Part shown: one piece after another, positions 3,890 to 56,967 of the stretch | Layout of the letters: the number at the start of each line of letters is the position of its first letter | Position numbering within the stretch: position 1 is the first letter of the stretch | Source of the DNA: a virus | Lineage: Duplodnaviria; Heunggongvirae; Uroviricota; Caudoviricetes | IMG/VR virus record: IMGVR_UViG_3300042922_001018 | Length of the DNA: 64,000 bases | Direction: 5' to 3' (one strand) | Made by a program: the position numbers and the translations under genes | Notes under the pieces: generated by a model | Seen by the model: only the letters and a program-made list of their open reading frames with translations | What the model was told of the DNA's origin: nothing | The model's database searches: none

Positions 3890-3898
3890 TGTAGGCGG
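3890..3898 (-). promoter_or_regulatory. CCGCCTACA element (first of 17 copies seen)
   Basis: + strand TGTAGGCGG begins at 3890, 11648, 14041, 16063, 20845, 22075, 23409, 23975, 32862, 33658, 36100, 36999, 51719, 53182, 55050, 55555, 56801; always 7-8 nt before a minus-strand ATG. Confidence 0.9.
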
Positions 3899-3900
3899 AC

Positions 3901-3929
3901 TTGACGCGTTGCACAAGCCCGAGTAGACT
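3901..3929 (+). promoter_or_regulatory. SigA-type leaderless promoter
   Basis: TTGACG-17-TAGACT-6-ATG(3936). Confidence 0.75.
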
Positions 3930-3935
3930 CATGGC

Positions 3936-4334
3936 ATGGATGACCGCAGGAACTACCTCGACCTCCCCGAGAACCCGACGTTCAAGGAGGCGCTCGATTA
4001 CGCGCTCGCCGACATGTTCCGGGGGCCGGAATCCGCGTTCCCAGTGTATCCGGATGCCGAGCGTTCTACGCACCCGATGTGGAAGGACTGGGATGAGGTG
4101 TCCCGGTACCTTCACGCGGTTCGCGACGGCGAGGATGTGTCGGGGTACGAAATCGTGAAGGTCTTCTCAGTGAAGACTGTGGACTGGACCGAGTTCCTCG
4201 ACACGGTGGCAGGCAACTCCGACCACGATGGCCTCGTTGCGGAGGTGGAGCGCGCCGACGGGTGGACCGGTCGCTACTGCATCGAAATCTCGTTGGCCAA
4301 GGCCATCAGCGCGTTGCAGGAGACACTCCGATGA
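3936..4334 (+). CDS. Hypothetical protein
   Basis: ORF with matching promoter. Confidence 0.7.
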   Translation: MDDRRNYLDLPENPTFKEALDYALADMFRGPESAFPVYPDAERSTHPMWKDWDEVSRYLHAVRDGEDVSGYEIVKVFSVKTVDWTEFLDTVAGNSDHDGLVAEVERADGWTGRYCIEISLAKAISALQETLR

Positions 4335-4516
4335 GCGGGTCGGTGATGGCTCGCTCGGTGGGCTTGGAGACATGGCCGTATTGCTCGACCGTACAGTGCA
4401 TGGAATGTAGCGCGATGCGCGCGGCGGGCATGCCTGCGTCGCCGGTTACTCCACGTCTTCCGCTCCGTGTACGCCTGCGCCTTGCGTTCGAGCGATTCTC
4501 TCGCTAGACTGCTGCC

Positions 4517-4786
4517 ATGATGTACGGCAAGCAGCTCATGGACGCGTTCGACGCCGAACGTCGGGACTTCCTTCGTCGTGACGAGTTCGCGGCGGCTGAG
4601 GTGATGAGCAACATGGAGAGCGCGGTGAACAACGTCATGCACGGACGCCCCGCTCAGGAGATTCATGACTACGCCGTTGACCACATCGGCCGCGTGCTCG
4701 GCGATGGCCGTATCGCGCTCTACCGTGCCGAGAGGGACGCGTACAAGTACGCCCTCGATGTCATCGACTCGGTGCCGGTGCCGTAG
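4517..4786 (+). CDS. Hypothetical protein
   Basis: TTGCGT-17-TAGACT-6-ATG. Confidence 0.7.
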   Translation: MMYGKQLMDAFDAERRDFLRRDEFAAAEVMSNMESAVNNVMHGRPAQEIHDYAVDHIGRVLGDGRIALYRAERDAYKYALDVIDSVPVP

Positions 4787-4794
4787 ACCGGTCG

Positions 4795-5022
4795 TTACTG
4801 CGTTGCAGCGACGCGCACAACCCCGGTGGGAAGTGTAGCGTTGGTCCGCAGCTCGCGCTTCAGCGCGCGCGTGATACGGCGTGCGAGCACCTCGCCTTCC
4901 ATGCGGTCGGCTGCGTGTCCGATAGCCCGGACAGCGCCGTTCACTCGTACGACAGCGCGGTAGCCGCCGTCGTAGAGTCCGTAGACGAGGGAGGTGAATG
5001 TGGGTCGTGGTGTTCTAGCCAT
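4795..5022 (-). CDS. Hypothetical protein
   Basis: ORF coupled to upstream small ORF. Confidence 0.55.
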   Translation of the reverse strand: MARTPRPTFTSLVYGLYDGGYRAVVRVNGAVRAIGHAADRMEGEVLARRITRALKRELRTNATLPTGVVRVAATQ

Positions 5023-5183: not shown

Positions 5184-5192
5184 GCCTCCAGT

Positions 5193-6746: not shown

Positions 6747-6791
6747 ATCCCGATGTTACCAGCAGCGTACAGCTCTGGTGATTGAAGCTGG

Positions 6792-7325: not shown

Positions 7326-7326
7326 G

Positions 7327-8069: not shown

Positions 8070-8504
8070 TCACGATTCGGTGTCGTACCAGCTCTCGATG
8101 TGGAAGAGCAGCGGGCCGTCGATACTGGGGACGATGAAGCTCTCGTAGTCCTCGTGCCAGATGATGCGGCGTCGGTCGCTATACGGCAGCTCCACATCGG
8201 CGTAGTGATACGTGATGACCACGCGCGGGACGTGCTCACCGCTGGACCACCGGACCGGTCCTTCTTCATCATCGTCCACGTAAGCGGTGTGGTCGAGCGC
8301 CTCTTCGTCGTCGCGCGGGATGCCGCGGAACAGCTCTACTCGTTCCCACCCGAGTGGGTGGGCCTTCAGCGTGCGGTCTTCTTCGTTGGGCAACGGGTCA
8401 TCGTCCCGGTCGAAGACGAGGGTGATTTCCCAGTGGTCGGGGTTGAAGTCCAGACTGAACGTCGGCGTATAGATGTAGAGGTAGCCTTCGGCGTTTATCT
8501 CCAC
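8070..8504 (-). CDS. Hypothetical protein (start uncertain)
   Basis: Protein-like 3' part of ORF 8070..8849. Confidence 0.5.
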   Translation of the reverse strand: MEINAEGYLYIYTPTFSLDFNPDHWEITLVFDRDDDPLPNEEDRTLKAHPLGWERVELFRGIPRDDEEALDHTAYVDDDEEGPVRWSSGEHVPRVVITYHYADVELPYSDRRRIIWHEDYESFIVPSIDGPLLFHIESWYDTES

Positions 8505-11640: not shown

Positions 11641-11955
11641 GTGTGCCTGTAGGCGGGTCATGCCGTTGCGGGCATTAGTCGTATGACCGGCGACAGCATG
11701 TTAGCGTCCCGTCGCATTGCACGAGTTCGATGGGATTCGTGAGCGGCCACATTTCGAGACTCTCCTCGGCTGAGGATTTCTTGGGCGCTCGACCGTCTCG
11801 CAGCATCTCTGTGGTGATGTAGTTCAACTCTTCGGGGACAGGACTTTCCGTGAGGTGACTCGCAGAATGCGCAAGCAACGTCTGAGGTTGTACCCAGGTG
11901 GGGCGTCTAGAACTACCAGACACCGTTCAGTCTACGTCTTCCTCTTCGCGGAGCA

Positions 11956-12669
11956 TTACTCGCGTCCTTCCCCGAGGGTTGCGGTGCGTTCGTTGAGGAT
12001 GGCGCGGCGTGCAGCGTGAGCGGCGACCTGCTGGGTGAACGCACGAAGCTGCGGAGAACGCGCTTCGGTCATTCCGTTCTCGTTGAACGTCTTGTCGAGG
12101 CTGGTGAGGACGGACTCGACGTTCTGCGAGAGCGCTGCGGCGTCTGCCTGAGAGAGTTCGACCTCCTCGCCGTCTACCCACCACTCGTCGTTCAGCGGGT
12201 CGGAGGAGTCGGCGATGGCCGGACCACCGAAGCGGGTGAGCTTGCCGTTGCGGTAGTACAGCCCGCTGCCGTCACGGGTGTCGATGATGCGCACGGCGGG
12301 ACCGTTGCGACGGTTCAGCAGCCCCTTCTTGTAGAAGCGCTGCTCGCGTGTCGGCTTGCCGTCTTCGGTCGTGGCGTCGTCTTCGTCCATAGCGTCGTAG
12401 TCGCCTTCCGCTGCAAGCTCCTCGGGGGTCTTCTTGTCGTGGCTTTCGCCCCACGCCTGGACGGCTTCAGGACTCGGCTTCGGACCGCTGGTGGCGCCGC
12501 AGTTCGGGCACTGGCCGATGAAGACTTCGCCGCGTTCCTGCTCCAGTTCTTCGAGAGGCTGGTTCTCGTCGAAACCGAGTTCGGGAACCTCGCCTTCCTT
12601 GTCGGAGAACTTTCCAACGCCATCACGGCGGACCTTGGACTCGTCGAACTGGTTCTGTGAGAAGCTCAT
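11956..12669 (-). CDS. Leader-family protein with CxxC and G-K-L-x-R-x-x-G-P-A repeats
   Basis: FDESKVRRDGVGKFSDKEGEVPELGF; CPNC; YYRNGKLTRFGGPAI. Confidence 0.8.
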   Translation of the reverse strand: MSFSQNQFDESKVRRDGVGKFSDKEGEVPELGFDENQPLEELEQERGEVFIGQCPNCGATSGPKPSPEAVQAWGESHDKKTPEELAAEGDYDAMDEDDATTEDGKPTREQRFYKKGLLNRRNGPAVRIIDTRDGSGLYYRNGKLTRFGGPAIADSSDPLNDEWWVDGEEVELSQADAAALSQNVESVLTSLDKTFNENGMTEARSPQLRAFTQQVAAHAARRAILNERTATLGEGRE

Positions 12670-12711: not shown

Positions 12712-13509
12712 TTACTTGTCGAGTTCGGCAGAGCGTTCCATCGCCTGCTCGAAGAGGATTCTGCGCTGAAACGGGTCCAGCGGGGTCTCATCGGTGAGAG
12801 CAGCGAACTGCTCCGTGATTTCGCTCCGGTTTCCGCTCTCGCGGAAGGCGTTGCTGTCAGGAAGGCGACTGTATTCTGCGCGCTCACCTTCAGCCCGTAG
12901 TTCACGGCTGCGGCGCGCTGCCATGATGGTCGCAGCCTTCAGGTAGAGCGCTCGCTGGTCAGGTTCGAGCGGCCCTGTCGCCTGCTCACGGATGAGGTTC
13001 TTGTACGTCACGTCAACGTCGCGTAGCTCCGACACGCGTGCGAAACGTTCGCCGGTCTCGTCCATGTAGTCCGCGGCGCCGTAAGTCCCGTACATCATCC
13101 GCGTCTCGAAGTTCGCCGCCTCACGTCGGCGGCGCTCGGCGTAGTTCAGGTGCGGAAGCCCCAGCGCATCATCGGCGCCTTCGACAGCCATCTGGACAAC
13201 CTGCGACTCAGGGTCCATGGGCTTGTGGTTCAAGAAGACGCGGGTGGGGCGTCCTTCACCGTCGATGTCTGCGCTGTACTTCACGGTGCCGTCGTCCTCG
13301 ATGAACTCTACGAAGCTGTCTCGTCCGGCAGCGACCGGCTCGTGGACCGTGTAGTTCGCAACGCCCCACGCCTGGGCGATACCGGCCGCAGCAATGTGTG
13401 CGGGCGTCTGTACTTCTGCGGTGTCGAGTGCGACCTCCGGCTGCGCGCCGGTCTTCTCGGAGAACTTGCCGGAGGTGTCACGGCGCACCTGTGCTTCGTC
13501 GAATGACAT
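12712..13509 (-). CDS. Leader-family protein
   Basis: MSFDEAQVRRDTSGKFSEKTGAQPEVAL. Confidence 0.8.
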   Translation of the reverse strand: MSFDEAQVRRDTSGKFSEKTGAQPEVALDTAEVQTPAHIAAAGIAQAWGVANYTVHEPVAAGRDSFVEFIEDDGTVKYSADIDGEGRPTRVFLNHKPMDPESQVVQMAVEGADDALGLPHLNYAERRRREAANFETRMMYGTYGAADYMDETGERFARVSELRDVDVTYKNLIREQATGPLEPDQRALYLKAATIMAARRSRELRAEGERAEYSRLPDSNAFRESGNRSEITEQFAALTDETPLDPFQRRILFEQAMERSAELDK

Positions 13510-13517: not shown

Positions 13518-14033
13518 TCAGTCCTGGGTCTCGAACGGGCGGTACGCGACTGCCCAGCCCTCTTCGTAGGTCTGACCCGTTTCCGGCTCGTCCTCGTCCG
13601 GGTATGAGGCGTAGACGGCTACGTAGTAGCCGGGGCGTTCCAGGATGTCTCCGGCCATGCGTCCGCCGAGCTGCTCGGAATCATGCATCCAGGGGCCGTC
13701 GTAGCCGTGCTGCCCGGTGTACCCGGAGAGCAGCTCCCACCCTTCGATGCTGCGGTGGTACGGGTCTACGTTGAAGCAGTCTGGGGCGTGCTTGTGCTGT
13801 ACGCCGTCGTACACGTCGCCGTTGTCGCCGACTGCGATGACGTGGTCGAACTCCATCAGGTTGGACAGGTTGCCGTCTTCACGAAGGTCTGGACCGTCGT
13901 ACTTCTTCCAGTCTGAGGAAACTGCGGGAAGCTCGACAGGAGTATCACCCAGGTTGACCTCTGGGGGCCAGCCGTTCTTCTCAGCGAACTTTCCGCCGTT
14001 GTCGCGTGCTACTGCCGTCTCGTCGAATGCCAT
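13518..14033 (-). CDS. Leader-family protein
   Basis: MAFDETAVARDNGGKFAEKNGWPPEVNL; motif at 14041. Confidence 0.8.
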   Translation of the reverse strand: MAFDETAVARDNGGKFAEKNGWPPEVNLGDTPVELPAVSSDWKKYDGPDLREDGNLSNLMEFDHVIAVGDNGDVYDGVQHKHAPDCFNVDPYHRSIEGWELLSGYTGQHGYDGPWMHDSEQLGGRMAGDILERPGYYVAVYASYPDEDEPETGQTYEEGWAVAYRPFETQD

Positions 14034-14472
14034 GCTCATCTGTAGGCGGCTCCTGCTCCTTCTTCGCAGCTACTTCTGCCCGCATCCATCGCGGGACCAA
14101 CCGCAGCGGCGGAAGCTTCTCAGAGACAAGCCAGATGGCGAAAGCGAGCGGGATGAGCGCGAGTAGGAGAGCGCCGAGTACGTAGAAGAGATGGGTGTTG
14201 CCTGTCATCTCGTCCGGACCTTCCGGCCAGAGCGCTTTGTGCAGCGCGCTCGCGAGGATGAGGATGTAGAACGGTGTGATGAGGTAGATGGTCCCCAGTG
14301 GGATACCGGGGAGGCGCAGCAGTCGCTTTGGCCGAAGGACACCGAACCAGATGAGTCCAGCGAGGATTTGCAGCGCAACAACGCCCCATGTGAGCCACGG
14401 TGGCATGGCGGAGATGACTTCAGCGAGCGCTTCGAGGAAGCGCTGAGCGCGCTCGGTACGTTCCACGCTCAA
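13981..14472 (-). CDS. Membrane protein
   Basis: Three TM segments. Confidence 0.65.
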   Translation of the reverse strand: MSVERTERAQRFLEALAEVISAMPPWLTWGVVALQILAGLIWFGVLRPKRLLRLPGIPLGTIYLITPFYILILASALHKALWPEGPDEMTGNTHLFYVLGALLLALIPLAFAIWLVSEKLPPLRLVPRWMRAEVAAKKEQEPPTDEHGIRRDGSSTRQRRKVR

Positions 14473-14987
14473 TCCTCTTCGTCGGTGACCACCCAGACAT
14501 CACGGAGATAGTCGTCCTGTTCCCCGTTGCGCTCGTAGACACCTTCCATCGCTTCAGGTACCTTCAACGCGCGGCAGTGGGCATCGAAGACGGTCACTTC
14601 GTCGATGGTGGGCGGCAGCACAGAAGTGGTGCCTTCCGCATCCGTGCGCTCGACTCCGTAGAGGTCTGCGGAGTACCCGTCGGAGCCGTTGCCTGCGACG
14701 ACATGCAGTCGGGAGATGCTGGAGTCGAGTGTGCGGAACACACTGAGAATCTGGTTGCCTTCGTGGCGGACCCGTAGCGCTTCGAGCTTGTAGTACAGGA
14801 TGTCGAGGCGAGCTTCTTCGCCACGGGACAGCTCCCGGCCGACTGCGAGGTCCACGAAGGACTCGAACTCGGCAATCTCCTTGGGGATGCCGCGCTTGCT
14901 TCGGAGAGCGATTTCTGGCGCGGTGCCCTCCTTCTCGGAGAACCGGCCGTCTGCTTCGCGAGGCTGCTCAGGGGTCGGGGTGCTCAT
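14469..14987 (-). CDS. Leader-family protein (variant leader)
   Basis: MSTPTPEQPREADGRFSEKEGTAPEIAL; TAGGAT-7-ATG. Confidence 0.75.
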   Translation of the reverse strand: MSTPTPEQPREADGRFSEKEGTAPEIALRSKRGIPKEIAEFESFVDLAVGRELSRGEEARLDILYYKLEALRVRHEGNQILSVFRTLDSSISRLHVVAGNGSDGYSADLYGVERTDAEGTTSVLPPTIDEVTVFDAHCRALKVPEAMEGVYERNGEQDDYLRDVWVVTDEED

Positions 14988-16055: not shown

Positions 16056-16133
16056 GCCTCGTTGTAGGCGGCGTGCGGCTGTTGTCCAGCTCCGGGGAAA
16101 TCGGGCGAGGAACGCGCACTTGGTATGGGCCAG

Positions 16134-19398: not shown

Positions 19399-19848
19399 TC
19401 AGCGCGTGCACGCCTCCACGAGGCGCACAGCGACCTCCTGAGCATCTTCATCGGTGTAGGCACCCTGCCCCTGGCCGCGGATAGCGTCCTCGTAGTCGAG
19501 AACCGGCGCGAGGAGACCGTCGCCGTCAGCCCAGTTGGTCTTCAGTTCCTCCGCAGTGTGGATACCGACGATGTCCATGTAGCGCTCTTCGCCAGGGAGC
19601 TTCACGACCATGTGATTCCACCCGGTAGGGTCATCTTCGGTAGTGACTGCTGTCAGCTCGCCGACACCGAGTTGTTCGAGAGCACGCGCCAGTCGATAGC
19701 ATTCACCGGCCGTGTATGTGTCCATCTCGTACTCATCGAAGGGCCACTCATCCGGCTCCTCGAAATGCGCGAGCGCAAGGTCGGGGGCGCTGCCGAGCTT
19801 CTCCGCGAACCTACCGTTCATGGCGCGCGGCTGCGTGCCGTCGAACAT
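19399..19848 (-). CDS. Leader-family protein with putative Cys-His-Asp domain
   Basis: QPRAMNGRFAEKLGSAPDLAL; YTAGEC...WNH...MDIVG. Confidence 0.75.
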   Translation of the reverse strand: MFDGTQPRAMNGRFAEKLGSAPDLALAHFEEPDEWPFDEYEMDTYTAGECYRLARALEQLGVGELTAVTTEDDPTGWNHMVVKLPGEERYMDIVGIHTAEELKTNWADGDGLLAPVLDYEDAIRGQGQGAYTDEDAQEVAVRLVEACTR

Positions 19849-20837: not shown

Positions 20838-20868
20838 GCCCGGATGTAGGCGGTATCGGACGCTGTTC

Positions 20869-21570
20869 TCAGAAGTCGATGCGCCAGACGCCGCCGACCT
20901 TGCGTGACGCGATGTCTTCCAGGTCGGACTCCGTCTCGATGACGTGGCTGCTGTACTGCGAGAGTGACCGTTCGACCTGTTCCAGACCTTCGAAGCTTTC
21001 CGTCGGCGCCTCGTTCCAGACGAGCGGCTTCTGGCCGTCCACGGCGACGAGGGAGATGTCAGCGATGTCGCCGTTCTCCTTGGTTTCCACCTCGAACACG
21101 AGAGCGGTCGCGTCCGGGTAGACCTGGCGCGTCTGCTCCCCTAGAACGGCAGGAAGCTCCTTACGAAGCTGTTCTTGTGCGTCTCGGTACTGAGTCCAGA
21201 GAGCGTTGCTGCGCCCGAGGAAACGGTCGGATACGGTGGTCTCGCCTTCCGGGTCGCCGGGCATGCGTACAGCGATGACTTCGACGGGTGTCGAGTCAGA
21301 GTCGAAGAACTCGCGCGCCAGGCCCAGTCCGTTCTCTGTGACCTGATGCCGACCGATGCGCAGAGTCACCTCTGCGTCTGTGCGCAACGCCCACGCGACC
21401 TGCTCGTGCACGGGACGGTCGTGTGGGAAGTCGGCGGGGAACTGTGCCCGTAGGTCCGCGATGGTCTCATCGTAGAAGCTTGGCCCGACCGACACATCCG
21501 GCGCCGTGCCGACCTTGACCGCGAACGTGCCGTCCTTCGAGCGGGGGTGGTCTTCGGGGGTGAACGACAT
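20869..21570 (-). CDS. Leader-family protein
   Basis: MSFTPEDHPRSKDGTFAVKVGTAPDVSV; coupled start. Confidence 0.8.
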   Translation of the reverse strand: MSFTPEDHPRSKDGTFAVKVGTAPDVSVGPSFYDETIADLRAQFPADFPHDRPVHEQVAWALRTDAEVTLRIGRHQVTENGLGLAREFFDSDSTPVEVIAVRMPGDPEGETTVSDRFLGRSNALWTQYRDAQEQLRKELPAVLGEQTRQVYPDATALVFEVETKENGDIADISLVAVDGQKPLVWNEAPTESFEGLEQVERSLSQYSSHVIETESDLEDIASRKVGGVWRIDF

Positions 21571-22067
21571 CAGAACTTCATCTCCCACTGCGTGTTCGGC
21601 CCGCTGTTGCTGCGTACCGTCGCAGCTTCGTGCCAGTCGGACTCGATGTTTACGGCCTGGCTGCTGAACGTGTCGATGTCGTTCTCGATGCTCTTCAGCT
21701 TGCTGAAGTCGCCGCCGATGAAAGGCGCGCTCGCGAAGTCGAGACGTTCTGGGCCTTCCACTGCGATGAGACGCGTGCCGATGACTGTGCGTCCGTCATC
21801 GAGCGTCTCGGTCTCGAACACGAGTCCGGTGGCTTCGGGGTAGTATTCCCGAGTCCGCTCTGCGAGGACTTCAGGGAGCTGCTTGCGAAGCTCCTCCTGC
21901 TCGGTACGGTATCGCGTCCACGCCGAGCCGCTCCGGCCGAGGAACCGGTCTACGGCTGTCGTGTCGGTCACACTGATGGAGTCCAGTGTGACTTCCGGCA
22001 TTCCGCCGGTCTTCTCGGCGAACTTGCCGTCGGTCGCGCGGGGGTGCTCAGATTCAGCGAATGTCAT
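21570..22067 (-). CDS. Leader-family protein
   Basis: MTFAESEHPRATDGKFAEKTGGMPEVTL; motif at 22075. Confidence 0.8.
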   Translation of the reverse strand: MTFAESEHPRATDGKFAEKTGGMPEVTLDSISVTDTTAVDRFLGRSGSAWTRYRTEQEELRKQLPEVLAERTREYYPEATGLVFETETLDDGRTVIGTRLIAVEGPERLDFASAPFIGGDFSKLKSIENDIDTFSSQAVNIESDWHEAATVRSNSGPNTQWEMKF

Positions 22068-22348
22068 GACCTTGTGTAGGCGGAGCGCGTGTTGGCTGCG
22101 AGGGCTACCATGCCGGAGCCATCCACAGTTACCTGGCCGGAGGACTTCGCGTAGGTGAGGCCGTATTTGACCTGAGACATGGGAAGACGGAAGGACTTCG
22201 CAACCCGGTCGAAGAAGTCGGTGAGCCGCATCGGGTGACCGACGGTCACAAGCACTTCGACGATGTTCCCGGCTAGCTCGCCTAGGCGCGCCAATCGTGC
22301 TTCGTAGTGCATGTATTCGATGCCGTCAGGTACGCGGTTTCCCGTCAT
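22064..22348 (-). CDS. Hypothetical protein, possibly winged helix
   Basis: 94 aa; helix-helix-beta hairpin pattern. Confidence 0.55.
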   Translation of the reverse strand: MTGNRVPDGIEYMHYEARLARLGELAGNIVEVLVTVGHPMRLTDFFDRVAKSFRLPMSQVKYGLTYAKSSGQVTVDGSGMVALAANTRSAYTRS

Positions 22349-23401: not shown

Positions 23402-23967
23402 GCCTGCGTGTAGGCGGCGGTACGCACCCGAATCCACAACGCGATGGTCTCGTAGACCGAGATGAAGCTGCACTCGACGAAGCCGCGCGGGATAGAACTG
23501 AGGTCATAGAACAAGCAGGGGTCCATCTCGCCTGCCCGTGGGCCGCGAGCGACAACACGCTCCATCTCTACGGGCGCTACGTCAGGGAACGCACGGCGCA
23601 TCGCCCGGATGGACCGCTCGTTGTATGGACGAATGAGAGCCGCGAGAGGGAGTCCGAGGTCGCGCGCAGCTTCGGCGACTGCTCGCTTCAATGGCGCGTT
23701 GATGCCGGACCCTCGATAGGCGGGTGTGAGGACAGTCGTCGTCTGGTAGTGGGCGTGGCCGTTCACGGGAGCGAGAGCGAACAGACCGGCGTACTCGTCG
23801 CCCACCTGGATGCCCCAGAGACCAGGCTTCTCTGTTATGTGGTCGAGGTACTCACCGAATGTGTCGCATCCAGCGACCGGAGCGTCGTAGCCGTCTTTCA
23901 GACGTGCGAAAAGCGCTTCCTTGTCAGCTTTCGAGATGAGCGAGAACCGGCGTAGCTTCACTGTCAT
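23398..23967 (-). CDS. GNAT acetyltransferase
   Basis: LTPAYRGSGIN acetyl-CoA motif; NERSIRAM; CCGCCTACA upstream but no leader. Confidence 0.8.
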   Translation of the reverse strand: MTVKLRRFSLISKADKEALFARLKDGYDAPVAGCDTFGEYLDHITEKPGLWGIQVGDEYAGLFALAPVNGHAHYQTTTVLTPAYRGSGINAPLKRAVAEAARDLGLPLAALIRPYNERSIRAMRRAFPDVAPVEMERVVARGPRAGEMDPCLFYDLSSIPRGFVECSFISVYETIALWIRVRTAAYTQA

Positions 23968-24007
23968 GAGCGCCTGTAGGCGGAGAAATCCGCCCGTAAC
24001 ACAGGGG

Positions 24008-32854: not shown

Positions 32855-33032
32855 GACCGGATGTAGGCGGTACGAAGCGTCGTCATCGGGCCTGTAAAGA
32901 GAGCAGGCCCGAGCGAACCATAGTTCGCTGGCAGTGGAGGCTTGCCTCCACAACGCCCCACACACGTGGACACGCGGGTCTCGCCCCTTCAGCCGTTCCA
33001 GTTCTGAGACAATCGTCTCGATTTCGGAACGG

Positions 33033-33650: not shown

Positions 33651-33737
33651 GCCCCAGTGTAGGCGGAACGGTGCCATCCGTACGATACGTCAGGATTGTC
33701 CTTATCGACTGTAACGATAAGCTACGTTGCTTCTAAT

Positions 33738-33837: not shown

Positions 33838-34569
33838 TCAGATGGGGACGCGACCGTGCCGGTTCCAGGCTTCCTGCGTGATGGGCATGTACTCGGCGAA
33901 AGAAGCCTCCATCATGTCGGCGACCATCTCGATTTCGCGCTGCGGGAACGACGGGAACTTCGCCTCATCCAGGGGGCGCTTGGTGCGCAGCGAGAGGAAG
34001 TTCGTCAGCGCTCGCGTGTTCATGGTGACGAACGCCGACGAGTAGATGTTCAGCGGAAGGCCCATACGACTGACCTCGCGAGCGACCTCCGCGTCCAGCA
34101 TTCGCTGGTACCCGGCGTAGGCGGTCTCGGCAGTGTTACGCAGCTCCTCGTTCACGATGGCGTGCTGCTCCTCGGTGCCTGCGACGTACTCGTACGCGCC
34201 GGGCTTACCCTGCTGCACGAGGTTCCGCTCAGCGGCAGGCACGTAGAAGATGGGACGGAGAACCTTGTACCGGCCCGACTCCTCGTTGTACGAGGCCATG
34301 CGGTGACGCATGATTTCCCGCCAGACGAAGATGGGAGCCTCGACATAGAAGGTGAACGAGCAGTGCTCGAACGGGGAGCCGTGGCGGTCACGGATGAGGA
34401 AGTTGATGAGCTTCTCGATGCCCTGCGCGGCGGCATCTTCGACTGCCTTGTCGCCGAGCGTAGAGACGCGTGCCGCCTGGGCGATGAAGGGGTCATCGGC
34501 CGCGGCTCGTACGAGCTGCACGGTCATGTCGGAACGGAAAGTGAGCGGGATGGGTGCTTCTTCAGTCAT
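33838..34569 (-). CDS. thyX: Flavin-dependent thymidylate synthase
   Basis: HGSPFEH; RHRMASYNEESGRY signature. Confidence 0.97.
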   Translation of the reverse strand: MTEEAPIPLTFRSDMTVQLVRAAADDPFIAQAARVSTLGDKAVEDAAAQGIEKLINFLIRDRHGSPFEHCSFTFYVEAPIFVWREIMRHRMASYNEESGRYKVLRPIFYVPAAERNLVQQGKPGAYEYVAGTEEQHAIVNEELRNTAETAYAGYQRMLDAEVAREVSRMGLPLNIYSSAFVTMNTRALTNFLSLRTKRPLDEAKFPSFPQREIEMVADMMEASFAEYMPITQEAWNRHGRVPI

Positions 34570-36092: not shown

Positions 36093-36116
36093 GCCACGAT
36101 GTAGGCGGCGATGCGG

Positions 36117-36557
36117 CTACAGGGCGCCACGGCCGATGGCTCGGTCTAGCGCAGTGAAGATGGAGCGTGTGCGACTAGGATAGCCGGAAACTCGTTCGCC
36201 ACCGTACTTCTCATCGAGAACCACCTCGTATGCGGTGCGCTTCTTCAGGTCGCGACGGATGCCTCGTGCCACCTTCACCGACGGTGTGCTCTCGTAGGAA
36301 CTAACGTAGCCGACGCGCTCACCGTCGAGGTAGACGGGCGTGCGAAGGTAGCCTGAGCCAGGCAAGATTTCTTCTTCCTCGCCGATACGGACATCGGCCG
36401 TCTCCAGCCGCTTGCCGTAGTAGCTCTCCTTCGACTTCGTGACCTTGCGAAGCTTCGGTTTTGGTGCAGCGTTCAGGGTGACTTCCGGCGCGGCCCCGGT
36501 CTTCTCGGAGAACTTGCCGCCCTGGTCTCGTTCTACCTGTGTTTCGTCGAATGCCAT
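36117..36557 (-). CDS. Leader-family basic protein
   Basis: MAFDETQVERDQGGKFSEKTGAAPEVTL. Confidence 0.8.
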   Translation of the reverse strand: MAFDETQVERDQGGKFSEKTGAAPEVTLNAAPKPKLRKVTKSKESYYGKRLETADVRIGEEEEILPGSGYLRTPVYLDGERVGYVSSYESTPSVKVARGIRRDLKKRTAYEVVLDEKYGGERVSGYPSRTRSIFTALDRAIGRGAL

Positions 36558-36991: not shown

Positions 36992-37009
36992 GACAGGATG
37001 TAGGCGGTC

Positions 37010-45082: not shown

Positions 45083-45154
45083 TGCCCCTGACAGGAATCG
45101 AACCCGTGACGCGAGGATTTAGAGTCCCCCGTTCTGCCATTGAACTACAGAGGC
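45083..45154 (-). tRNA. tRNA with CUA anticodon (amber suppressor type)
   Basis: GCCUCUG UA GUUC AAUGGCA GAAC G GGGGA CUCUAAA UCCUC GCGUC ACGGG UUCGAUU CCUGU CAGGGGC A; full cloverleaf, CCA not encoded. Confidence 0.92.
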
Positions 45155-46560: not shown

Positions 46561-47937
46561 TCACTTGTCGAACTCGCAGATGTAGGAGACACGAATCTGC
46601 TCCACGTCCCAGACAACGATTTCGTTGTTGAGAACGCCGCAGGTACCGCCCTTGATGTTGATGCTGTTGAACGGCTTGCCCTTCGCGTCCACGCTGTTGT
46701 GCGCCTTGTTGAGGCTTGCCGAACCAGCCCAACCACCCTGCTGGTACGGGCGGAACTCGTTGCCGAGAACAACCTCGTTGAGGAGCATGAAGCAGTTGTC
46801 GCGCGAGCCGCCGGTCGCTCCGCCCCAGGAACCTGCCGAGTACCGCAGCGACTTGGTGGACTGGTCGGAGAAGTAGATGCCGTCACCGAACATGCGGCCC
46901 GCGATGCGGATGGTGGTTCCACGGACCGGCGGGACGAACAGACCCTTGCGGAGGATGGAGAGCAGGTTACCCGTGAGGGTGCCGTGCCACAGCTCGCGCA
47001 CGTTGCTGAGCTTGTCCTTCGCGTCCTTCCACTTCGCCAGGTGCTCGTCCGAGTCGGTGACGACGTAGACGCGCTTCAGCTTCAGTCCGGCGACATCGCG
47101 GTGGTGACGGTCGTTCTTCGTGTCCTCGAACATCTTCGAGATGCGCTTGAACTCCTTGCCCTTCGGGTCGAGGACATCGAGCGCGTAACGGAAGTCGATG
47201 GTGGGCGTCGAGGTCTGCGCGGCCTTCTGCGCGTCGGCGAGAGCCTTGGCGGTTGCGGTCTTCGCGAGAGCGACGGACGATTCGAGCTGGTCGAGAAGGT
47301 CGCGCTGCTTGTCGATGGTGGTGACCTTCGTGAGGAAGGTGTCGCCCCACCCACGGCGCGCGGGCACCTTCTGGGGGATGTAGGTCAGGTACTCGTCCAG
47401 GTCTTTCTGGCTGACGCCGCTCCCGCTGTCCGTCTGGTTCGCCAGGCGGTTGAGGATGACGCGAGCTTTCTGGATGTTGCCGAGGGAGACCACGCCGAGC
47501 GCGGTACGGACGATACCGTCATCCGAGACGGTGATGAGACCACCGGAGGCTGAGGTGATGGCGTGACGGTTCTCCGCGACGATACGGCGGATGAACGTGT
47601 CGAGTGCGGCGCGAGCGTCGGCCGTGACGTTCGCAGGCATGAGGGAGGCGAGAGCGGCGACCTCGACATCGACACCGTTGGTCCCGTTGCCTCCGGAGAT
47701 GGCCTTCGTGGTCGAAGCCTCGATGTCGGTGCGCTTGTAGCCCTTGCGCTCCTTCTCGCGGATGCAGCGGTCGTACGTGTGGCGACCGCTGCCCTTGTTG
47801 GACACGGTGCCTTCGACGCCGACGCGGCCCCAACGGGCGGTCACAGTGTCGTCATCGTGCAGAGTGACGTGGTAGAACTTGTTGTTGTTCTCCGCGCCGC
47901 TGACGAGAATCAGCATCGTCTCTTCGAGGGTGGCCAT
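46561..47937 (-). CDS. WGR-domain PARP-like ADP-ribosyltransferase
   Basis: NNKFY...WGRVG; YLTYIPQ; LWHGT, GRMFGDGIYF, KSLRY, NNEIVVW (H-Y-E triad). Confidence 0.93.
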   Translation of the reverse strand: MATLEETMLILVSGAENNNKFYHVTLHDDDTVTARWGRVGVEGTVSNKGSGRHTYDRCIREKERKGYKRTDIEASTTKAISGGNGTNGVDVEVAALASLMPANVTADARAALDTFIRRIVAENRHAITSASGGLITVSDDGIVRTALGVVSLGNIQKARVILNRLANQTDSGSGVSQKDLDEYLTYIPQKVPARRGWGDTFLTKVTTIDKQRDLLDQLESSVALAKTATAKALADAQKAAQTSTPTIDFRYALDVLDPKGKEFKRISKMFEDTKNDRHHRDVAGLKLKRVYVVTDSDEHLAKWKDAKDKLSNVRELWHGTLTGNLLSILRKGLFVPPVRGTTIRIAGRMFGDGIYFSDQSTKSLRYSAGSWGGATGGSRDNCFMLLNEVVLGNEFRPYQQGGWAGSASLNKAHNSVDAKGKPFNSINIKGGTCGVLNNEIVVWDVEQIRVSYICEFDK

Positions 47938-49772: not shown

Positions 49773-50213
49773 ATGCACCTCGTCAAGGCACCGCAAGAAA
49801 TCCCCGAGTACGCTGACCTCTTCCTTGCTGGAGGTATCAGTGGGACCGGCGATTGGCAAGCGTACGCCGAGCAGCGACTCGCTCACTTCTCCGGCGTGGT
49901 CATCAACCCACGCCGCGACGGTCATCTGGAGCCGGAGTTCGAGGCAGAACAGGTCGCGTGGGAGCATGTAGCCCTACGGGTCAGCGACACCATCCTGTTC
50001 TGGTTCCCGAAGGAGACGCTGTGCCCTATCACGCTCTTCGAGCTGGGTGCATGGTCGATGACGAAGAAGCAGCTCTTCGTCGGGGTCGAGCCGGAGTATC
50101 AGCGGCGGACGAACGTGCTCGAACAGCTTCGACTGGCCCGGCCGGACGTACAGGTGCAGGACACGCTGGATGACACACTACGCCTGGCGTTGCGCACGCT
50201 ACTGCATCAGTGA
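49773..50213 (+). CDS. Nucleoside 2-deoxyribosyltransferase-like protein
   Basis: FLAGGI...DWQ...NPRR...QVAWE...PITLFELG; TACGAT-6-ATG. Confidence 0.85.
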   Translation: MHLVKAPQEIPEYADLFLAGGISGTGDWQAYAEQRLAHFSGVVINPRRDGHLEPEFEAEQVAWEHVALRVSDTILFWFPKETLCPITLFELGAWSMTKKQLFVGVEPEYQRRTNVLEQLRLARPDVQVQDTLDDTLRLALRTLLHQ

Positions 50214-50707
50214 CGAACACCCATGTCGTCCAGCCAGGAAATGAGCTGGTCGGCGACACGTTCAACACGGTCACGGTCTGAGTACGTCTGGAACTCGGTG
50301 GCGATGAACTCGCGTTCTGTTGGCGGCATCTCGGTCAGGAGAATATCGTCGGCCGCTTCCAGTTCCTCGTCAGTGAACGCATCCGCGTACCGGTCATCGT
50401 TCAGGATATGGTCGCCGTCGCTGATGCCGGTGGCGTCGAGAACATGACCGTCTGGTCCGCGAACAGCAGCGTGCGTCCAGCCGTGGCCGTCGGTCGTGAT
50501 GATGACCGGTTCCCATCCGAGGCGCTCGTGCAGCCTTTGGGCGAGATGGTTGCAGTCGCCGCCCGTGAAGTCGCTGATGTCTTGTTCGTCCAGCGGAGAC
50601 TCCTGGAAAGGGATGACTGGGGCGAGACCAACTTCGGGTGTGGCGCCGGTCTTCTCGGCGAACTTCCCGTCGGTCGCCCGGTTGACCTCGGTCTCGTTGA
50701 AGGTCAT
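50207..50707 (-). CDS. Leader-family protein with putative Cys-His-Asp domain
   Basis: MTFNETEVNRATDGKFAEKTGATPEVGL; FTGGDC...WTH...LDATG. Confidence 0.8.
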   Translation of the reverse strand: MTFNETEVNRATDGKFAEKTGATPEVGLAPVIPFQESPLDEQDISDFTGGDCNHLAQRLHERLGWEPVIITTDGHGWTHAAVRGPDGHVLDATGISDGDHILNDDRYADAFTDEELEAADDILLTEMPPTEREFIATEFQTYSDRDRVERVADQLISWLDDMGVRH

Positions 50708-51711
50708 GACGCACCGCCTCGGTCACCCTGTCGGTAACCCGGCCACGGCTCAGCCTTCGCCACACCGACGAACTTCGTCTCCGGAGTTCCACGTAGCTCC
50801 GTGTCCGAGGAGGCCGATACCACGAGACCCTTCGCCCCTTCTTCGAATTCGATGCGCGCGCGAGCGCCTTGTGCGATGACGATTGTCGGGTCGGACCCCT
50901 TCGGCACCTTGACTGTCGCGGTGGTGTCGAACGAGATGAGGACCGTGTCGGTGCCAGATGCTTCGATGGTGGGCGAGCCGCCCGAGAAGAGCGAGGCACT
51001 GGCCCCGTGCCCAGAAGCTTCTGCATGCCTGAGGCGTGTGTTCCGCCCCGCTTCGGTGGAGTCACCGAAGCCCGAGATGGCCGCGACCGCCTGAGACACA
51101 GCGCGCTCGTAGTTGTTCTGCGTCGCGAGTTCCGCCGCACGGGTGGCGTACCCGGCGGCGAGGTGCTTGTACCGACGGTTGGCATCCCGCTCGGAAAGCT
51201 CGCCGTCCATGTAGAGATTTTCGGGGGAGGTGTGCGCCTCGAACGCGTCGGCCAGGTCGCTCAGGTTACGAACGAAACCGAATGAGCCGCTCTTGGAGGG
51301 GCGGGTTTCTTCCTCCGGCTGGGGTTCAGTTTCGCGGCTGGCGCGCTCCGCGATGTAGTCATCGACCACGGCATCGGATAGGCGGACCTCTCCTTCGTAC
51401 TCGTGGAGGAAGAAGTCGTTGACCAGACCGTTCCGAGCGATTTCGGGATACAGGCGCGCATAGCTCTGGTCCTCGCGCATTGCCTTCACCTCGTCGAGCG
51501 TCCAGTTGTCCAGCACGCCTTCCACGTCGAACGCATTCGACTCGTCGTAGCCGAAGTACCCGCTCTCACCGTCGATGTCGAAGATGTTGCGACGGATGGA
51601 TGCGGTGACCGGCTCACGCTCAACAGTCAGGCCGACTTCCGGGGCTGCTCCGACCTTATCGGTGAACTTGCCGTCCGTTGCGCGAGGGTGGCCCTGGGAA
51701 TCGAAACTCAT
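50704..51711 (-). CDS. Leader-family protein
   Basis: MSFDSQGHPRATDGKFTDKVGAAPEVGL; motif at 51719. Confidence 0.8.
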   Translation of the reverse strand: MSFDSQGHPRATDGKFTDKVGAAPEVGLTVEREPVTASIRRNIFDIDGESGYFGYDESNAFDVEGVLDNWTLDEVKAMREDQSYARLYPEIARNGLVNDFFLHEYEGEVRLSDAVVDDYIAERASRETEPQPEEETRPSKSGSFGFVRNLSDLADAFEAHTSPENLYMDGELSERDANRRYKHLAAGYATRAAELATQNNYERAVSQAVAAISGFGDSTEAGRNTRLRHAEASGHGASASLFSGGSPTIEASGTDTVLISFDTTATVKVPKGSDPTIVIAQGARARIEFEEGAKGLVVSASSDTELRGTPETKFVGVAKAEPWPGYRQGDRGGAS

Positions 51712-51749
51712 GCCTCCGTGTAGGCGGAGAATCGTGGTAGCATGAGTTC

Positions 51750-51897: not shown

Positions 51898-52524
51898 TTA
51901 GACCTTGAAGCGTCGGCCTAGACCGTACGCTTCCACTTCTGCGGGAGCAACCAGCTCTAGGTCTCCAGACGCCGAAATGACCTTCCCGGTCGCTCCAGGC
52001 TCGAACACGACTCGGATGGCAGAGTTCTTGCCCACAGCCACAAGGCCATGAGCGCCCTGTTTCACCGTAATGACGCCACCTGTCGTGCGTACCAGAGTCA
52101 CAGTCACGTCCTCATCGAACTCGTCTACCGGCTGGCCTCGGTCATACGCCACAGCGGTCTGTGACTCATGATGAGTCCACGTCTCCTTGAACCCGCCGCC
52201 CGGTGTACGCGATGCGTCGCCCTTGATGAGACTCGATGCCATGAATGCGGCGTGACCTGCGTTTTCCTTGTCGGCCAGCTCGATGAGGCGCGTGGTCACA
52301 TCGCCTGAGAAGGTGCGATTGAACCAGTCCATCGTTCCCCCGTCTTCGCAGCTTCGCTGCATCCGTCGGTAGCTCTCCAGCAGGTTCGGGATGTGGTCGA
52401 TGTCTTCGTACGAGCGAGACCGTGAGGCGGCCGGTTCGAGCGATACGTCTGGCCCAGCGCCTTCCTTCGGGCCGAACCGACCATCCAGTTCGCGGGGCTG
52501 CTTCTTGCTTCCGAAACCCAGCAT
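51898..52524 (-). CDS. Leader-family protein (variant leader)
   Basis: QPRELDGRFGPKEGAGPDVSL; paralog of next. Confidence 0.8.
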   Translation of the reverse strand: MLGFGSKKQPRELDGRFGPKEGAGPDVSLEPAASRSRSYEDIDHIPNLLESYRRMQRSCEDGGTMDWFNRTFSGDVTTRLIELADKENAGHAAFMASSLIKGDASRTPGGGFKETWTHHESQTAVAYDRGQPVDEFDEDVTVTLVRTTGGVITVKQGAHGLVAVGKNSAIRVVFEPGATGKVISASGDLELVAPAEVEAYGLGRRFKV

Positions 52525-53174: not shown

Positions 53175-53196
53175 GCCCTGATGTAGGCGGAGACAC

Positions 53197-54451: not shown

Positions 54452-54492
54452 GCCCCCTAGCCTACACGACGTTCCCGATGACAGCGGCTATG

Positions 54493-55041
54493 TCAACCGC
54501 GCAGCTTCTCCTCTGAAACCGTCTCGATGAGGCCGTCGGCTTCATCTCCGAAGGCGGAGTCCAGGAACTCGATAGAGTCGTCATCTCCCTCGGCCGCGGC
54601 TCGCGCGATGACAGCGAGAGCTTCCTCTGTCGTCTTCGGCGCCTCGCCCGCGGTGTAGATGGAATCCTCTCCCGCGTACAGCATGGTCACGGGTGTGCCA
54701 TCATGCGGGCTGGAGCTAGCGATGGCAGTGACACCCCGCTCTTCGACGAGTCGGGCAAGGCGCGTCTTAGCGTGACCGGTGAGGCGCGGGTCCGTGATGG
54801 GGTTGCGCGAACTCGACGGCTCCAGAGTCAGCAGGTCCGGCACCTGGAAACCGAAGTTCAGTGAAGCCAGGTTGAAGGAACCAGAGAAGTCGTCCGGGAG
54901 GAGACCGGACTCCGGTGCCGACCCGCGCTTCGCGGCGAACTTGCCGTCGCCCTTACGGGGCTGGGCAGTTGCCTGCGCGTATCGGTCAGCCGCGATACGG
55001 TCAAGGTTCTCACGGAGACTCTTGGGGTTCTTGTCGGTCAT
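54493..55041 (-). CDS. Leader-family protein (motif displaced ~20 aa)
   Basis: QPRKGDGKFAAKRGSAPESGL; motif at 55050. Confidence 0.75.
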   Translation of the reverse strand: MTDKNPKSLRENLDRIAADRYAQATAQPRKGDGKFAAKRGSAPESGLLPDDFSGSFNLASLNFGFQVPDLLTLEPSSSRNPITDPRLTGHAKTRLARLVEERGVTAIASSSPHDGTPVTMLYAGEDSIYTAGEAPKTTEEALAVIARAAAEGDDDSIEFLDSAFGDEADGLIETVSEEKLRG

Positions 55042-55079
55042 GCCTTCAGTGTAGGCGGACCGATGAGCTTCCGCAAGTC

Positions 55080-55547
55080 TCAGAAGCCTCGGACCTGTTC
55101 CCAGAATGAGCGCTTCGGGTTGACGATGCTCTGGTACTCGTCACCGAACAGCTCGCGAGCGATTGCGTGCTCCTCCTCGCCGACCCGGTTGTCGCGCTCG
55201 TAGGCGCGCGCCGCGAGAACGACATCGGCAATGGCCTGGTCTGCGGTTCCGTAGGCTCCGCTCTCCGCGTCCTCCGCCTTCTTCTCGCTCTGCTTCTTGC
55301 CCATCTCTGCGAACACGATGTCATGGCGGTCGAGGAAGGACCGAATGCGGACCGTGTCCGAAGGCGTCAACCGTTCGTTTTTGGCTACACCGCCGCGCGG
55401 CAGCTTGAACACGTCCGTGACTGGCCGCATGTCTCGGCGAGTAGCTGGCGCCGAATCAGAGCGAAGCGAAACCTCCGATGGCAGACCACGCTTGTCCGCG
55501 AACCGGCCTCCGGTATCGCGAACGGTGTCAGCCTCGTTGAATGTCAT
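55080..55547 (-). CDS. Leader-family protein
   Basis: MTFNEADTVRDTGGRFADKRGLPSEVSL; motif at 55555. Confidence 0.8.
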   Translation of the reverse strand: MTFNEADTVRDTGGRFADKRGLPSEVSLRSDSAPATRRDMRPVTDVFKLPRGGVAKNERLTPSDTVRIRSFLDRHDIVFAEMGKKQSEKKAEDAESGAYGTADQAIADVVLAARAYERDNRVGEEEHAIARELFGDEYQSIVNPKRSFWEQVRGF

Positions 55548-55566
55548 GACCCGCTGTAGGCGGTGG

Positions 55567-56136
55567 TCACCGCCCTCGAAGCCGGTCCCCCAGGGAAGGA
55601 GCGGGCGGCGACACGATGGCATCGTAATCAGCACCGAAGACTTCACGGGCCAGCTTGTCGCGGTCCTCGTAGTACCTGCGGGACTCTGGGAAGTCACGCG
55701 CCTTCCGCGCATTGTAGATGAGGTTGTAGAGGGTGTACCGAGAGCCGTGATGACCTTCGACGGTACCGGCTTTCAGGATACGCCCATCTGCGAAGCCGTA
55801 CTTCGCCTTGTAGAAAGCGCCGTCTTCGGTTGCGTGCCCTGTAGGCCTGATGAATACGGTGAACCCGGTCCTCTCCACGAAGTCTTCCACGCGAGCCACA
55901 TCACGCTCGCTCATGCCGGACTTCCTGTACAGCACGGGAACGGGGTAAGACTCCGCATCCTTCTCATACCCGAGTGGGCGCCGGAGCTTGCTGCCCAGCG
56001 ACGCTTCCGGTGCTTGCGGACGGCTTCCGTCCACAGCGCGCAGTGGTTCGCTGAGCGATACCTCTGTCGCCGAGCCGGTCTTCTCTGAGAAGCGTCCAGT
56101 CGTATCGCGACGAATCGCCGACTCATTGAATGTCAT
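55567..56136 (-). CDS. Leader-family protein
   Basis: MTFNESAIRRDTTGRFSEKTGSATEVSL. Confidence 0.8.
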   Translation of the reverse strand: MTFNESAIRRDTTGRFSEKTGSATEVSLSEPLRAVDGSRPQAPEASLGSKLRRPLGYEKDAESYPVPVLYRKSGMSERDVARVEDFVERTGFTVFIRPTGHATEDGAFYKAKYGFADGRILKAGTVEGHHGSRYTLYNLIYNARKARDFPESRRYYEDRDKLAREVFGADYDAIVSPPAPSLGDRLRGR

Positions 56137-56792
56137 CGCAGACCAGCCCCTACTCGTGCGTTGAGAATCTGTGCTCGGGTGTACTCCTGGATGGCTTCGA
56201 TAGCTGTGCGCCGCGCTTCCCAGTCCTCATCTACGGTGTACTTCGCCGTCACACCCGAAGTATCGAAGAGCATGTCCAGGTCATCCCACAGGTCACGCTT
56301 CTCCGCGTGGGTGAGTTCCACCTGTTCGCCGTCTACCCACCACTCGTTCATCGAGTCAGGAGCCGAAGAATCAATCAGGGCGGGGCCATCAGTTCGGTGA
56401 AGCTTGCCCTCGCGGTAATACTCACCGTCACCGGGCGGGGACCAGGCGAGACGGACTGCGGGAGCGCCCTCGCGGTGCAGCTTGCCGTCCTTGAAGAAGC
56501 TCTGCTTGACTGTCGGGAACACCTTCAGAGGCGAGATAGCGACCTCATCGTAGCCGGGGTTCTCACGATGGGCGTCCGCCGCCTCGTTTGCAGCCTTCGC
56601 AGACGAGAAGTCCCCGCCGTCCCAGCCACATCCTTTGCACCATGCGCGGGTCCAGGAGACCCGGACCTCGCAGACGATGCCGTCGCCGCGGTCGATGACG
56701 CCAGGCTTCAGAGCGACCTCAGCGGGCGCGCCGGTCTTCTCGGTGAACTTGCCGTCTGTGGCCCGACTGACCTCAGACTCTTTGAATGTCAT
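56133..56792 (-). CDS. Leader-family protein with CxxC and GKLHRxxGPA repeats
   Basis: MTFKESEVSRATDGKFTEKTGAPAEVAL; motif at 56801; related to 11956..12669. Confidence 0.8.
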   Translation of the reverse strand: MTFKESEVSRATDGKFTEKTGAPAEVALKPGVIDRGDGIVCEVRVSWTRAWCKGCGWDGGDFSSAKAANEAADAHRENPGYDEVAISPLKVFPTVKQSFFKDGKLHREGAPAVRLAWSPPGDGEYYREGKLHRTDGPALIDSSAPDSMNEWWVDGEQVELTHAEKRDLWDDLDMLFDTSGVTAKYTVDEDWEARRTAIEAIQEYTRAQILNARVGAGLR

Positions 56793-56967
56793 GCTTTCAG
56801 TGTAGGCGGAGTCGCGTGCTGATAGCAACGCTCGCCTTCAGATTTCACCGCGCGGTTGCAGTGCCACATACGGCCGAGGTCAGCACGGCTGTGTTTTCGC
56901 GCTGCGCTGAGACCACCGTAATGGCATGGCGCGCCGCAGACATGACGCGGTGGCGAGTACGCGCGCA

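Follow-up and report, generated by a model that had tools for sequence, protein, structure and literature searches.

Phage T4 late promoters carry TATAAATA at −10, which is read without a −35 element by the phage sigma factor gp55, with gp33 and a sliding-clamp co-activator. The HrpL regulon joins a dedicated extracytoplasmic function (ECF) sigma factor and its promoter box, the hrp box, to an N-terminal export signal on type III effectors. In Actinobacteria, SigA-type leaderless promoters have TANNNT about 7–12 nucleotides (nt) before the start site and no conserved −35 (Cortes et al. 2013, PMC3898074), and Cluster K mycobacteriophage genomes hold start-associated sequences (SAS), 5'-GGGATAGGAGCCC, described without an assigned function (Pope et al. 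2011, PMC3203893). The present analysis concerns a nine-base word, CCGCCTACA (the box), in a 64,000-nt stretch of DNA catalogued as a Caudoviricetes virus (IMG/VR record IMGVR_UViG_3300042922_001018; the window), where it stands just ahead of genes whose products share an N-terminal tag. The best explanation of the box is that it represents an alternative promoter class, which defines a private regulon of a mobile replicon.

Each of these systems resembles the box in some respects and differs from it in others. In common with SigA-type leaderless promoters, the box appears as a single element of the −10 region without a −35, with a start at a purine, the leading base of the start codon, after a pyrimidine; alignment of 74 sites gave no −35, and the pyrimidine at −1 was found at 74 of 74. 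It differs from them in that all 9 bp are invariant and those of the upstream half GC-rich, that it is confined to a private set of genes and that ordinary actinobacterial genomes seldom contain it, and only the three copies with an 8-nt spacer have TANNNT 6–7 nt before the start. Like the T4 late promoters, it would be a short, highly conserved, −10-only word that marks the private regulon of a mobile genome, but its sequence is unrelated, no gp55-like factor was identified among the 90 open reading frames (ORFs) of the window, and the replicon is plasmid-like. T4 late mRNAs, moreover, have leaders and Shine-Dalgarno sites. The likeness to SAS lies in an asymmetric, orientation-specific word of about 10 bp placed right upstream of some starts and conserved before unrelated genes of an actinobacterial mobile genome; SAS, however, holds a GGAG Shine-Dalgarno-like core, whereas the box has none and occurs also 30–45 nt from Shine-Dalgarno genes, with a start-site signature. 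As with the hrp box, a private promoter word seems to be coupled to a common N-terminal signal with unrelated protein bodies behind it, but the hrp box has two parts, a −35 and a −10, and gives mRNAs with leaders, and the host of the present box is Gram-positive. What is new here is the footprint in orthologous pairs, the dichotomy between box and Shine-Dalgarno across relatives, the existence of sister boxes with two classes, and the start-site signature in leadered copies.

The box and the tagged genes of the window

An exact-word count found 17 copies of CCGCCTACA in the window, all on the minus strand, against a chance expectation from shuffles of 0.34 on average and 2 at most. The distance from the box to the ATG is 7 nt (N7) in 14 copies and 8 nt (N8) in the other three (those ending at 56809, 55058 and 3898), so that the copy number, positions and spacers given in the initial annotation were confirmed by the recount. 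One-mismatch variants number 16 (nine on the minus strand and seven on the plus strand); because they occur at chance level, are all intragenic and never lie ahead of a start codon, the functional copies are essentially invariant. None of the spacers holds a functional Shine-Dalgarno sequence, the GG-rich ones stopping 1–3 nt short of the ATG. This absence, as well as the lack of a conserved −35 that had been reported at the same time, was borne out by the alignment of the window with its relatives.

The tag reads M-x-F-(D/N)-E-x-x-(HP/V-x)-R-x-x-x-G-(K/R/Q/T)-F-x-E-K-x-G-x-x-P-E-V-x-L, and is present in 16 of the 17 box-led genes compared with 9 of 84 other genes (Fisher p = 2e-11). The 16 agree with the number of 'leader' genes previously placed behind a copy, provided that the gene starting at 55041 is counted, in which the tag follows a 27-amino-acid (aa) extension. 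Alignment of the tag also agrees with five ORF starts that had been corrected on the basis of the box (4115 to 3881, 16187 to 16055, 23473 to 23401, 32965 to 32854 and 55712 to 55547). In the window and in its relatives, tagged genes without a box have an AGGAG-type Shine-Dalgarno 6–12 nt upstream, and sometimes a GTG start, whereas box-led genes have no such sequence. The nine boxless tagged genes had each been said to lie behind a box-led gene, and for seven this is so: they are internal to operons, right behind the box-led gene, with a Shine-Dalgarno or a stop-start overlap. The other two have a SigA-type −10 of their own where the box would stand, and tag and box can therefore be uncoupled. 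Several copies were also thought to lie within the 3' end of the upstream gene; two or three do (23417, 22083 and perhaps 14049), while four others are placed 2–8 nt past the upstream stop codon.

The window has ordinary leaderless promoters as well, about 36 of them (TANNNT-N6/7-RTG) ahead of untagged genes. Before untagged genes on both strands, TANNNT lies 6 nt upstream of the start in 30 cases and 7 nt upstream in nine, with 0–4 cases at any other distance, and the consensus is gTAG(R)(M)T-N6-ATG with a pyrimidine at −1 in 82%. From this peak it follows that the element makes many ordinary SigA-type leaderless mRNAs of the kind known from mycobacteria (PMC3898074), and the box is a second class, distinct from these. 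The three N8 copies match TANNNT-N6-ATG (as TACACT or TACAAT), but the 14 N7 copies do not: they read TACA(N)(C/G/A) followed by a 5-nt gap to the ATG. It was thus correct that most copies are without the final T of TANNNT.

Conservation of the box in related contigs

Relatives were collected by an exact-pattern scan of metagenome contigs in JGI and ENA, which returned more than 30 contigs with the box before tagged genes. Their syntenic stretches are 70–84% identical to the window at the nucleotide level. Across 11 orthologous pairs the box is identical at 99 of 99 bases, a figure that is in part ascertainment because the scan required an exact box. In the same pairs, the 60 nt upstream are 51% identical and the spacer 65%, and the codons of the tag are 84% identical at positions 1–2 and 61% at position 3. 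The orthologues of the sites at 11656, 32870 and 55058 fell outside the search pattern and so provide an unbiased test, yet they keep the box. These comparisons suggest that purifying selection acts on the box as a DNA word.

Alignment of 74 non-redundant N7 sites gave no conserved position between −76 and −17 (at most 0.21 bit each), that is, no −35. Immediately before the start, position −1 is C in 67 sites, T in seven and a purine in none, with A at +1 and mostly G at −2 and −3. A pyrimidine at −1 followed by a purine at +1 is the usual context of a start site (the Y−1/R+1 rule), a tendency seen also at the SigA-type leaderless starts of the window, and is counted in favour of the promoter reading. 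Five further copies in related contigs are found 30–40 nt ahead of tagged genes with a Shine-Dalgarno of their own, and the eighth base after the box is a purine in all five.

The surroundings of the box were informative too. A strong hairpin stops 0–7 nt short of it at no fewer than 10 sites; among the relatives, contig L168 has a 15-bp stem plus TTTT touching the box and L120 a 23-bp stem, and in the window the copies ending at 53190 and 55058 are each adjoined upstream by an 8-bp hairpin. A gene behind an abutting hairpin needs a new start site, for which only the box plus 7 nt is available. Contig L133 (Ga0136636_10002503) holds at 8109–8133 two divergent boxes 7 bp apart, TGTAGGCGG-GAGCCAA-CCGCCTACA, each followed by N7, an ATG and a tagged gene, which makes a minimal bidirectional unit. 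In contig L129, at about 188–215, the box and N7 are followed by AGG in place of ATG, with the frame of the tag otherwise intact (xTFSEQNVNRDQAGKFGEK). The AGG may reflect an inactivated start codon, an error in sequencing or the use of a non-canonical start.

Sister boxes on megaplasmids of cultured strains

When one tag was compared with PLSDB by tblastn, megaplasmids were found, and the only complete replicons found with the same box-plus-tag system were circular plasmids of 400–546 kb from cultured Arthrobacter and Curtobacterium. The plasmid pS16 of Curtobacterium sp. MCSS17_016 (NZ_CP126255.1; 546 kb, circular) has genes for a type IV coupling protein and for a giant protein of FtsK-like type. 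The pattern CCGCNYACA-N7/8-ATG has 53 matches on it, versus two in the reversed control, and ORFs begin at 59 sites that read (c)(G)CCGC(G/A)CACA(T)-N7-RTG, the start codon being ATG in 52 and GTG in seven. Position −1 of these sites is always a pyrimidine (47 C and 12 T) and there is no −35. Tag-like starts of several forms were seen by eye in most of the box-led products, and 19 conform to the strict pattern.

On the 400-kb plasmid of Arthrobacter sp. zg-Y1110 (NZ_CP104273.1) the same pattern has 98 matches, versus none in the control, and CCGCACACA occurs in 188 copies, which fall into two classes. In one class, about 50 copies have the spacer GGNGGGC, usually N7, and head tagged proteins (...NRQPEGIPAGGQFA...); upstream of them there is at most a weak CTGCTCC or TGCGC word. 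In the TA class (121 copies) the box is followed by TA(G)GGG, a −35-like cGG(G/T)GAGA lies 13 nt upstream, and the genes behind are untagged; 59 of these copies are leaderless at N8, and 61 are leadered, with a Shine-Dalgarno and a start codon 30–45 nt further on. By its layout the TA class appears to be a bipartite promoter, and with 121 copies before untagged genes the box there would serve as the plasmid's general promoter core. A search for a −35 by position and by 5-mer enrichment was negative in the window family and in pS16, and positive only in the Arthrobacter classes. Where no start codon stands at 7 or 8 nt (86 Arthrobacter copies), 78% have a pyrimidine at position 8 after the box and 93% (59 of 61 in the TA class) have a purine at position 9, while positions 10–16 are near 50/50. 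The box thus sets a start-site-like dinucleotide at the leaderless start position, independently of translation.

Boxes lie on both strands of pS16 and of the Arthrobacter plasmid, and they occur as divergent pairs, for which reason a single-strand (leading-region) promoter was rejected. Homologues on the two plasmids were found for nine of the 90 window ORFs. A common backbone is therefore not demonstrated, and the parts in common are the box-plus-tag system and a small number of cargo genes. Among the other genes of the Arthrobacter plasmid are secE, trxB, Lsr2, two of Bax-inhibitor-like type and two for sigma factors.

Distribution outside these replicons

The density of the box pattern is 266 per Mb in the window, 245 per Mb on the Arthrobacter plasmid and 97 per Mb on pS16. 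In 404 Actinomycetes genomes it does not exceed 3.5 per Mb, roughly double the value of the reversed control; this census takes in ten unpublished genomes (G265, G375, G009, G038, G032, G045, G034, G026, G017 and G306), on which the statement that no genome searched is enriched partly rests. The box is not a general host signal. The exact pattern of box plus tag start gave only single chance matches in 185,579 species genomes, none of them encoding the tag, and only single matches in IMG/VR. In full-text searching, the 9-mer turned up solely in primers and unrelated constructs, and none of the papers in the library searched uses the word in this sense.

A probable dedicated promoter and its possible reader

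Taken together, the evidence suggests, with a probability of about 70%, that the box is the core of a dedicated, element-specific, non-SigA promoter which gives leaderless mRNA. In such a mechanism CCGCCTACA would be the promoter core from −16 to −8, an extended −10-like box, to which host RNA polymerase, probably with a specificity factor other than SigA, would bind without a fixed −35. Transcription would start 8 nt (sometimes 9 nt) past the box, at the A of the ATG, so that the mRNA would have neither leader nor Shine-Dalgarno, and translation would begin at the 5'-terminal AUG in the manner of other leaderless genes of Actinobacteria. Those genes that follow a box-led one would be translated off the same transcript through a Shine-Dalgarno or a stop-start overlap. 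The regulon so marked would here be nearly confined to genes for tagged proteins, with the untagged neighbours using TANNNT-N6/7 leaderless promoters.

The absence of TANNNT from the 14 N7 copies, with TA placed one base nearer the start, implies that recognition must differ from that by SigA, and the CACA of the sister boxes together with the N7 register makes plain SigA recognition unlikely. A plasmid sigma factor is a plausible reader, as a candidate only. The Arthrobacter plasmid encodes two sigma factors. One is WhiG/FliA-like (279 aa; 130173–131012), lies beside the Lsr2 gene and outside any flagellar cluster, and is 42% identical to the FliA-like protein of pS16. The other is RpoD-like (370 aa; gene at 355261–356373, or 355244–356373 with the upstream box, plus strand), and its own gene is led by box-N8-ATG, which suggests either autoregulation or the inclusion of a sigma gene within the box regulon. 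The boundary segment of sigma regions 2.4/3.0 reads the extended −10, and at this boundary the RpoD-like protein has PIHYHD, versus PVHxVE in four Streptomyces Hrd sigmas. Neither the window nor the related metagenome loci examined yielded homologues of the sigma factors of the two plasmids.

The FliA-like sigma of pS16 is an unlikely reader. Upstream of the flagellin gene and flgB of this plasmid there is a common TCTGNCGAGTAGGT, not the box. The promoter consensus of sigma-28 (FliA/WhiG) is TAAA-N15-GCCGATAA, and a sigma-28 promoter was rejected, since there is no TAAA or other −35 and the box can be aligned with GCCGATAA only over CCG; in addition, GCCGATAA-like words in pS16 are not located at gene starts. 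The LuxR-type helix-turn-helix (HTH) protein of pS16 was considered as a hidden sigma and rejected, because its match is confined to the C-terminal HTH (a second region-4 match). As separate observations, pS16 holds a complete flagellar gene cluster, including the FliA-like sigma, at about 349000–364000, and a near-box, CCGCCCACG, lies about 55 nt ahead of its flagellin start.

Several points weigh against a dedicated sigma-read promoter. The final T is missing from 14 of 17 copies, and TA stands a base nearer to the start than it does in the window's SigA-type promoters. Perfect invariance over nine bases is unusual among sigma-read −10 elements, and some of the apparent conservation, as noted above, was built into the contig scan. 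Among its 90 ORFs the window encodes no sigma-70-family protein, and no sigma-70 domain or phage sigma family was found there with Pfam; the sole sigma-70-family gene of pS16 is the FliA-like one of the flagellar cluster.

Other explanations of the box

A rather unlikely alternative is that the box is an operator for a repressor or activator encoded by the element, placed over a weak SigA −10, so that the regulator times the host SigA holoenzyme. The perfect invariance of the nine bases fits a regulator site better than a −10, the three N8 copies hold TANNNT at the SigA distance, pS16 has a gene for a LuxR-type HTH protein, and actinobacterial SigA promoters are normally without a −35 (PMC3898074). 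The 14 N7 copies, however, have no TANNNT in any usable register, and since the Curtobacterium and Arthrobacter boxes read CACA, with the T of TA gone, no SigA −10 is left there to be regulated. The box is, moreover, asymmetric and single, and its distance to the start-site signature is fixed.

Less probable still are explanations in which the box acts in RNA or is a mark of processing or recombination. As a non-Shine-Dalgarno translation signal on polycistronic transcripts, bound by a factor or pairing with rRNA in the manner of ideas put forward for the Cluster K SAS, it would account for the fixed distance to the start codon, the missing Shine-Dalgarno and the boxes inside or just after an upstream ORF. 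Such a signal would not be expected 30–45 nt before genes with their own Shine-Dalgarno, nor would codon-less Arthrobacter copies, 86 in all, be expected to keep Y8/R9; terminator-like hairpins abut the box, divergent boxes stand 7 bp apart, one class has a −35-like partner, and operon-internal tagged genes manage without the box. Equally improbable is that the box is an endoribonuclease site from which short-leader mRNAs are released, or that it is the junction at which a promoter-plus-tag cassette was inserted during its spread by recombination or gene conversion, even though the similarity of paralogues starts exactly at the box and tag and box are both present or both absent in most genes. 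Spacer and third codon positions of the tag have diverged freely while the box is unchanged, which argues against recent copying. Neither a partner site nor an inverted repeat was seen, cleavage at the box would leave a leader of 7–8 nt without a Shine-Dalgarno, and two tagged genes use a SigA-type −10 instead of the box.

Individual copies of the box and boxless tagged genes

All of the following features are on the minus strand and are given from the high-coordinate end of the window. The box at 56801..56809 (N8, ATG 56792) heads a tagged gene (MTFKESEVSRATDGKF...) and also fits TACACT-N6-ATG; directly behind this gene is the boxless tagged gene 55567..56136. The next copy, 55555..55563 (N7, ATG 55547, tagged), starts 3 nt past the upstream stop codon. 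At 55050..55058 (N8, ATG 55041) the tag follows the 27-aa N-terminal extension and the end of the 8-bp hairpin is 7 nt upstream; contig L110 has an orthologue that retains both the box and the 8-nt spacer. The copy at 53182..53190 (N7, ATG 53174, tagged) has its 8-bp hairpin ending 5 nt upstream, and the boxless tagged gene 51898..52524, with a GAGG Shine-Dalgarno, lies downstream of the gene so headed. The box at 51719..51727 (N7, ATG 51711) precedes a tagged gene, 50704–51711, which the boxless tagged gene 50207..50707 overlaps and directly follows.

Four copies lie in the middle of the window. That at 36999..37007 (N7, ATG 36991, tagged) starts 2 nt past the upstream stop, and the start of the boxless tagged gene 36117..36557 overlaps the stop of the gene it heads; it is conserved in contigs L102 and L153, as is the box at 36100..36108 (N7, ATG 36092, tagged). 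Contig L084 conserves the copies at 33658..33666 (N7, ATG 33650, tagged) and at 32862..32870 (N7, ATG 32854, tagged, MTMTFD...), the latter being outside the search pattern. The box at 23975..23983 (N7, ATG 23967) is the only one that heads an untagged gene, of 189 aa.

Two copies that follow are located within upstream ORFs: 23409..23417 (N7, ATG 23401, tagged; conserved in L116) is within the 3' end of an ORF with an ATGA overlap, and 22075..22083 (N7, ATG 22067, tagged) is within the 3' end of ORF 22064–22348. Downstream of the gene starting at 22067 is the boxless tagged gene 20869..21570 (GGGAG Shine-Dalgarno), and directly behind the tagged gene headed by the box at 20845..20853 (N7, ATG 20837) is another boxless tagged gene, 19399..19848. 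Contig L164 conserves three copies, each with N7 and a tagged gene, namely 16063..16071 (ATG 16055), 14041..14049 (ATG 14033, MAFDE...) and 11648..11656 (ATG 11640, MTNLAFEE...), the last of which is outside the search pattern. The boxless tagged gene 12712..13509, with a GAGG Shine-Dalgarno, lies downstream of the gene starting at 14033. The two tagged genes in which a SigA-type leaderless −10 replaces the box are 14469..14987 (TAGGAT-N7-ATG) and 11956..12669 (TAGAAT-N7-ATG), the latter having the same layout in its L164 orthologue. The last copy, 3890..3898 (N8, ATG 3881, tagged), also fits TACAAT-N6-ATG.

The window as part of a plasmid-like element

The window has a G+C content of 62% and its genes are almost all on the minus strand. 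Its Pfam domains include PARP with WGR, NADAR, nucleoside deoxyribosyltransferase-like, ThyX, R2K ATP-grasp, PLD-like, RlaP/HAD_SAK_2 and GNAT. The sole match of an Rfam covariance model in the window is one tRNA at 45083–45154 (minus strand), amid the array of tagged genes, and the box sites match no Rfam family. The initial annotation had taken the promoter to be phage-specific, which is not supported: Pfam families of phage virion proteins have no match among the 90 ORFs of the window, and the only complete replicons found with box and tag are circular plasmids. The late timing proposed there is likewise unsupported. A comparison with INPHARED phages found only a short ThyX stretch in common. 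The window is better described as part of a giant actinobacterial plasmid-like element than as a phage.

The cargo looks conflict- or repair-flavoured. At 46561–47937 (minus strand) and at about 57213–58283, 27215–28096 and 33838–34569 the window encodes a PARP catalytic domain plus WGR and R2K ATP-grasp, PLD-like and ThyX proteins, and elsewhere it encodes NADAR, nucleoside 2-deoxyribosyltransferase-like, RlaP and HAD_SAK_2 ('Swiss army knife' RNA repair) domains.

Significance

Tentatively, a broader picture may be drawn in which the giant plasmids of Micrococcales and related soil Actinobacteria run their own transcription. Plasmid sigmas would read a private CCGC-N-Y-ACA −10, which has lineage-specific forms and two classes, one of them fixed, with promoter and tag as a joint front end, to dozens of otherwise unrelated proteins that have an N-terminal peptide in common. 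Such a system would be the counterpart of HrpL and the hrp box on Gram-positive plasmids, with leaderless mRNA. Cultures exist of Arthrobacter sp. zg-Y1110 and of Curtobacterium sp. MCSS17_016, so that the start sites and the factor that reads the box are open to direct testing. The box corrects many gene starts and, if the promoter reading is true, it would offer a compact orthogonal promoter of 16–17 bp for leaderless expression in Actinobacteria. It would also give a sequence handle on a large undescribed regulon, with dozens of tagged proteins per half-megabase plasmid of common soil and plant Actinobacteria, and it would mean that such plasmids, like phages, keep a transcription programme apart from that of the host.

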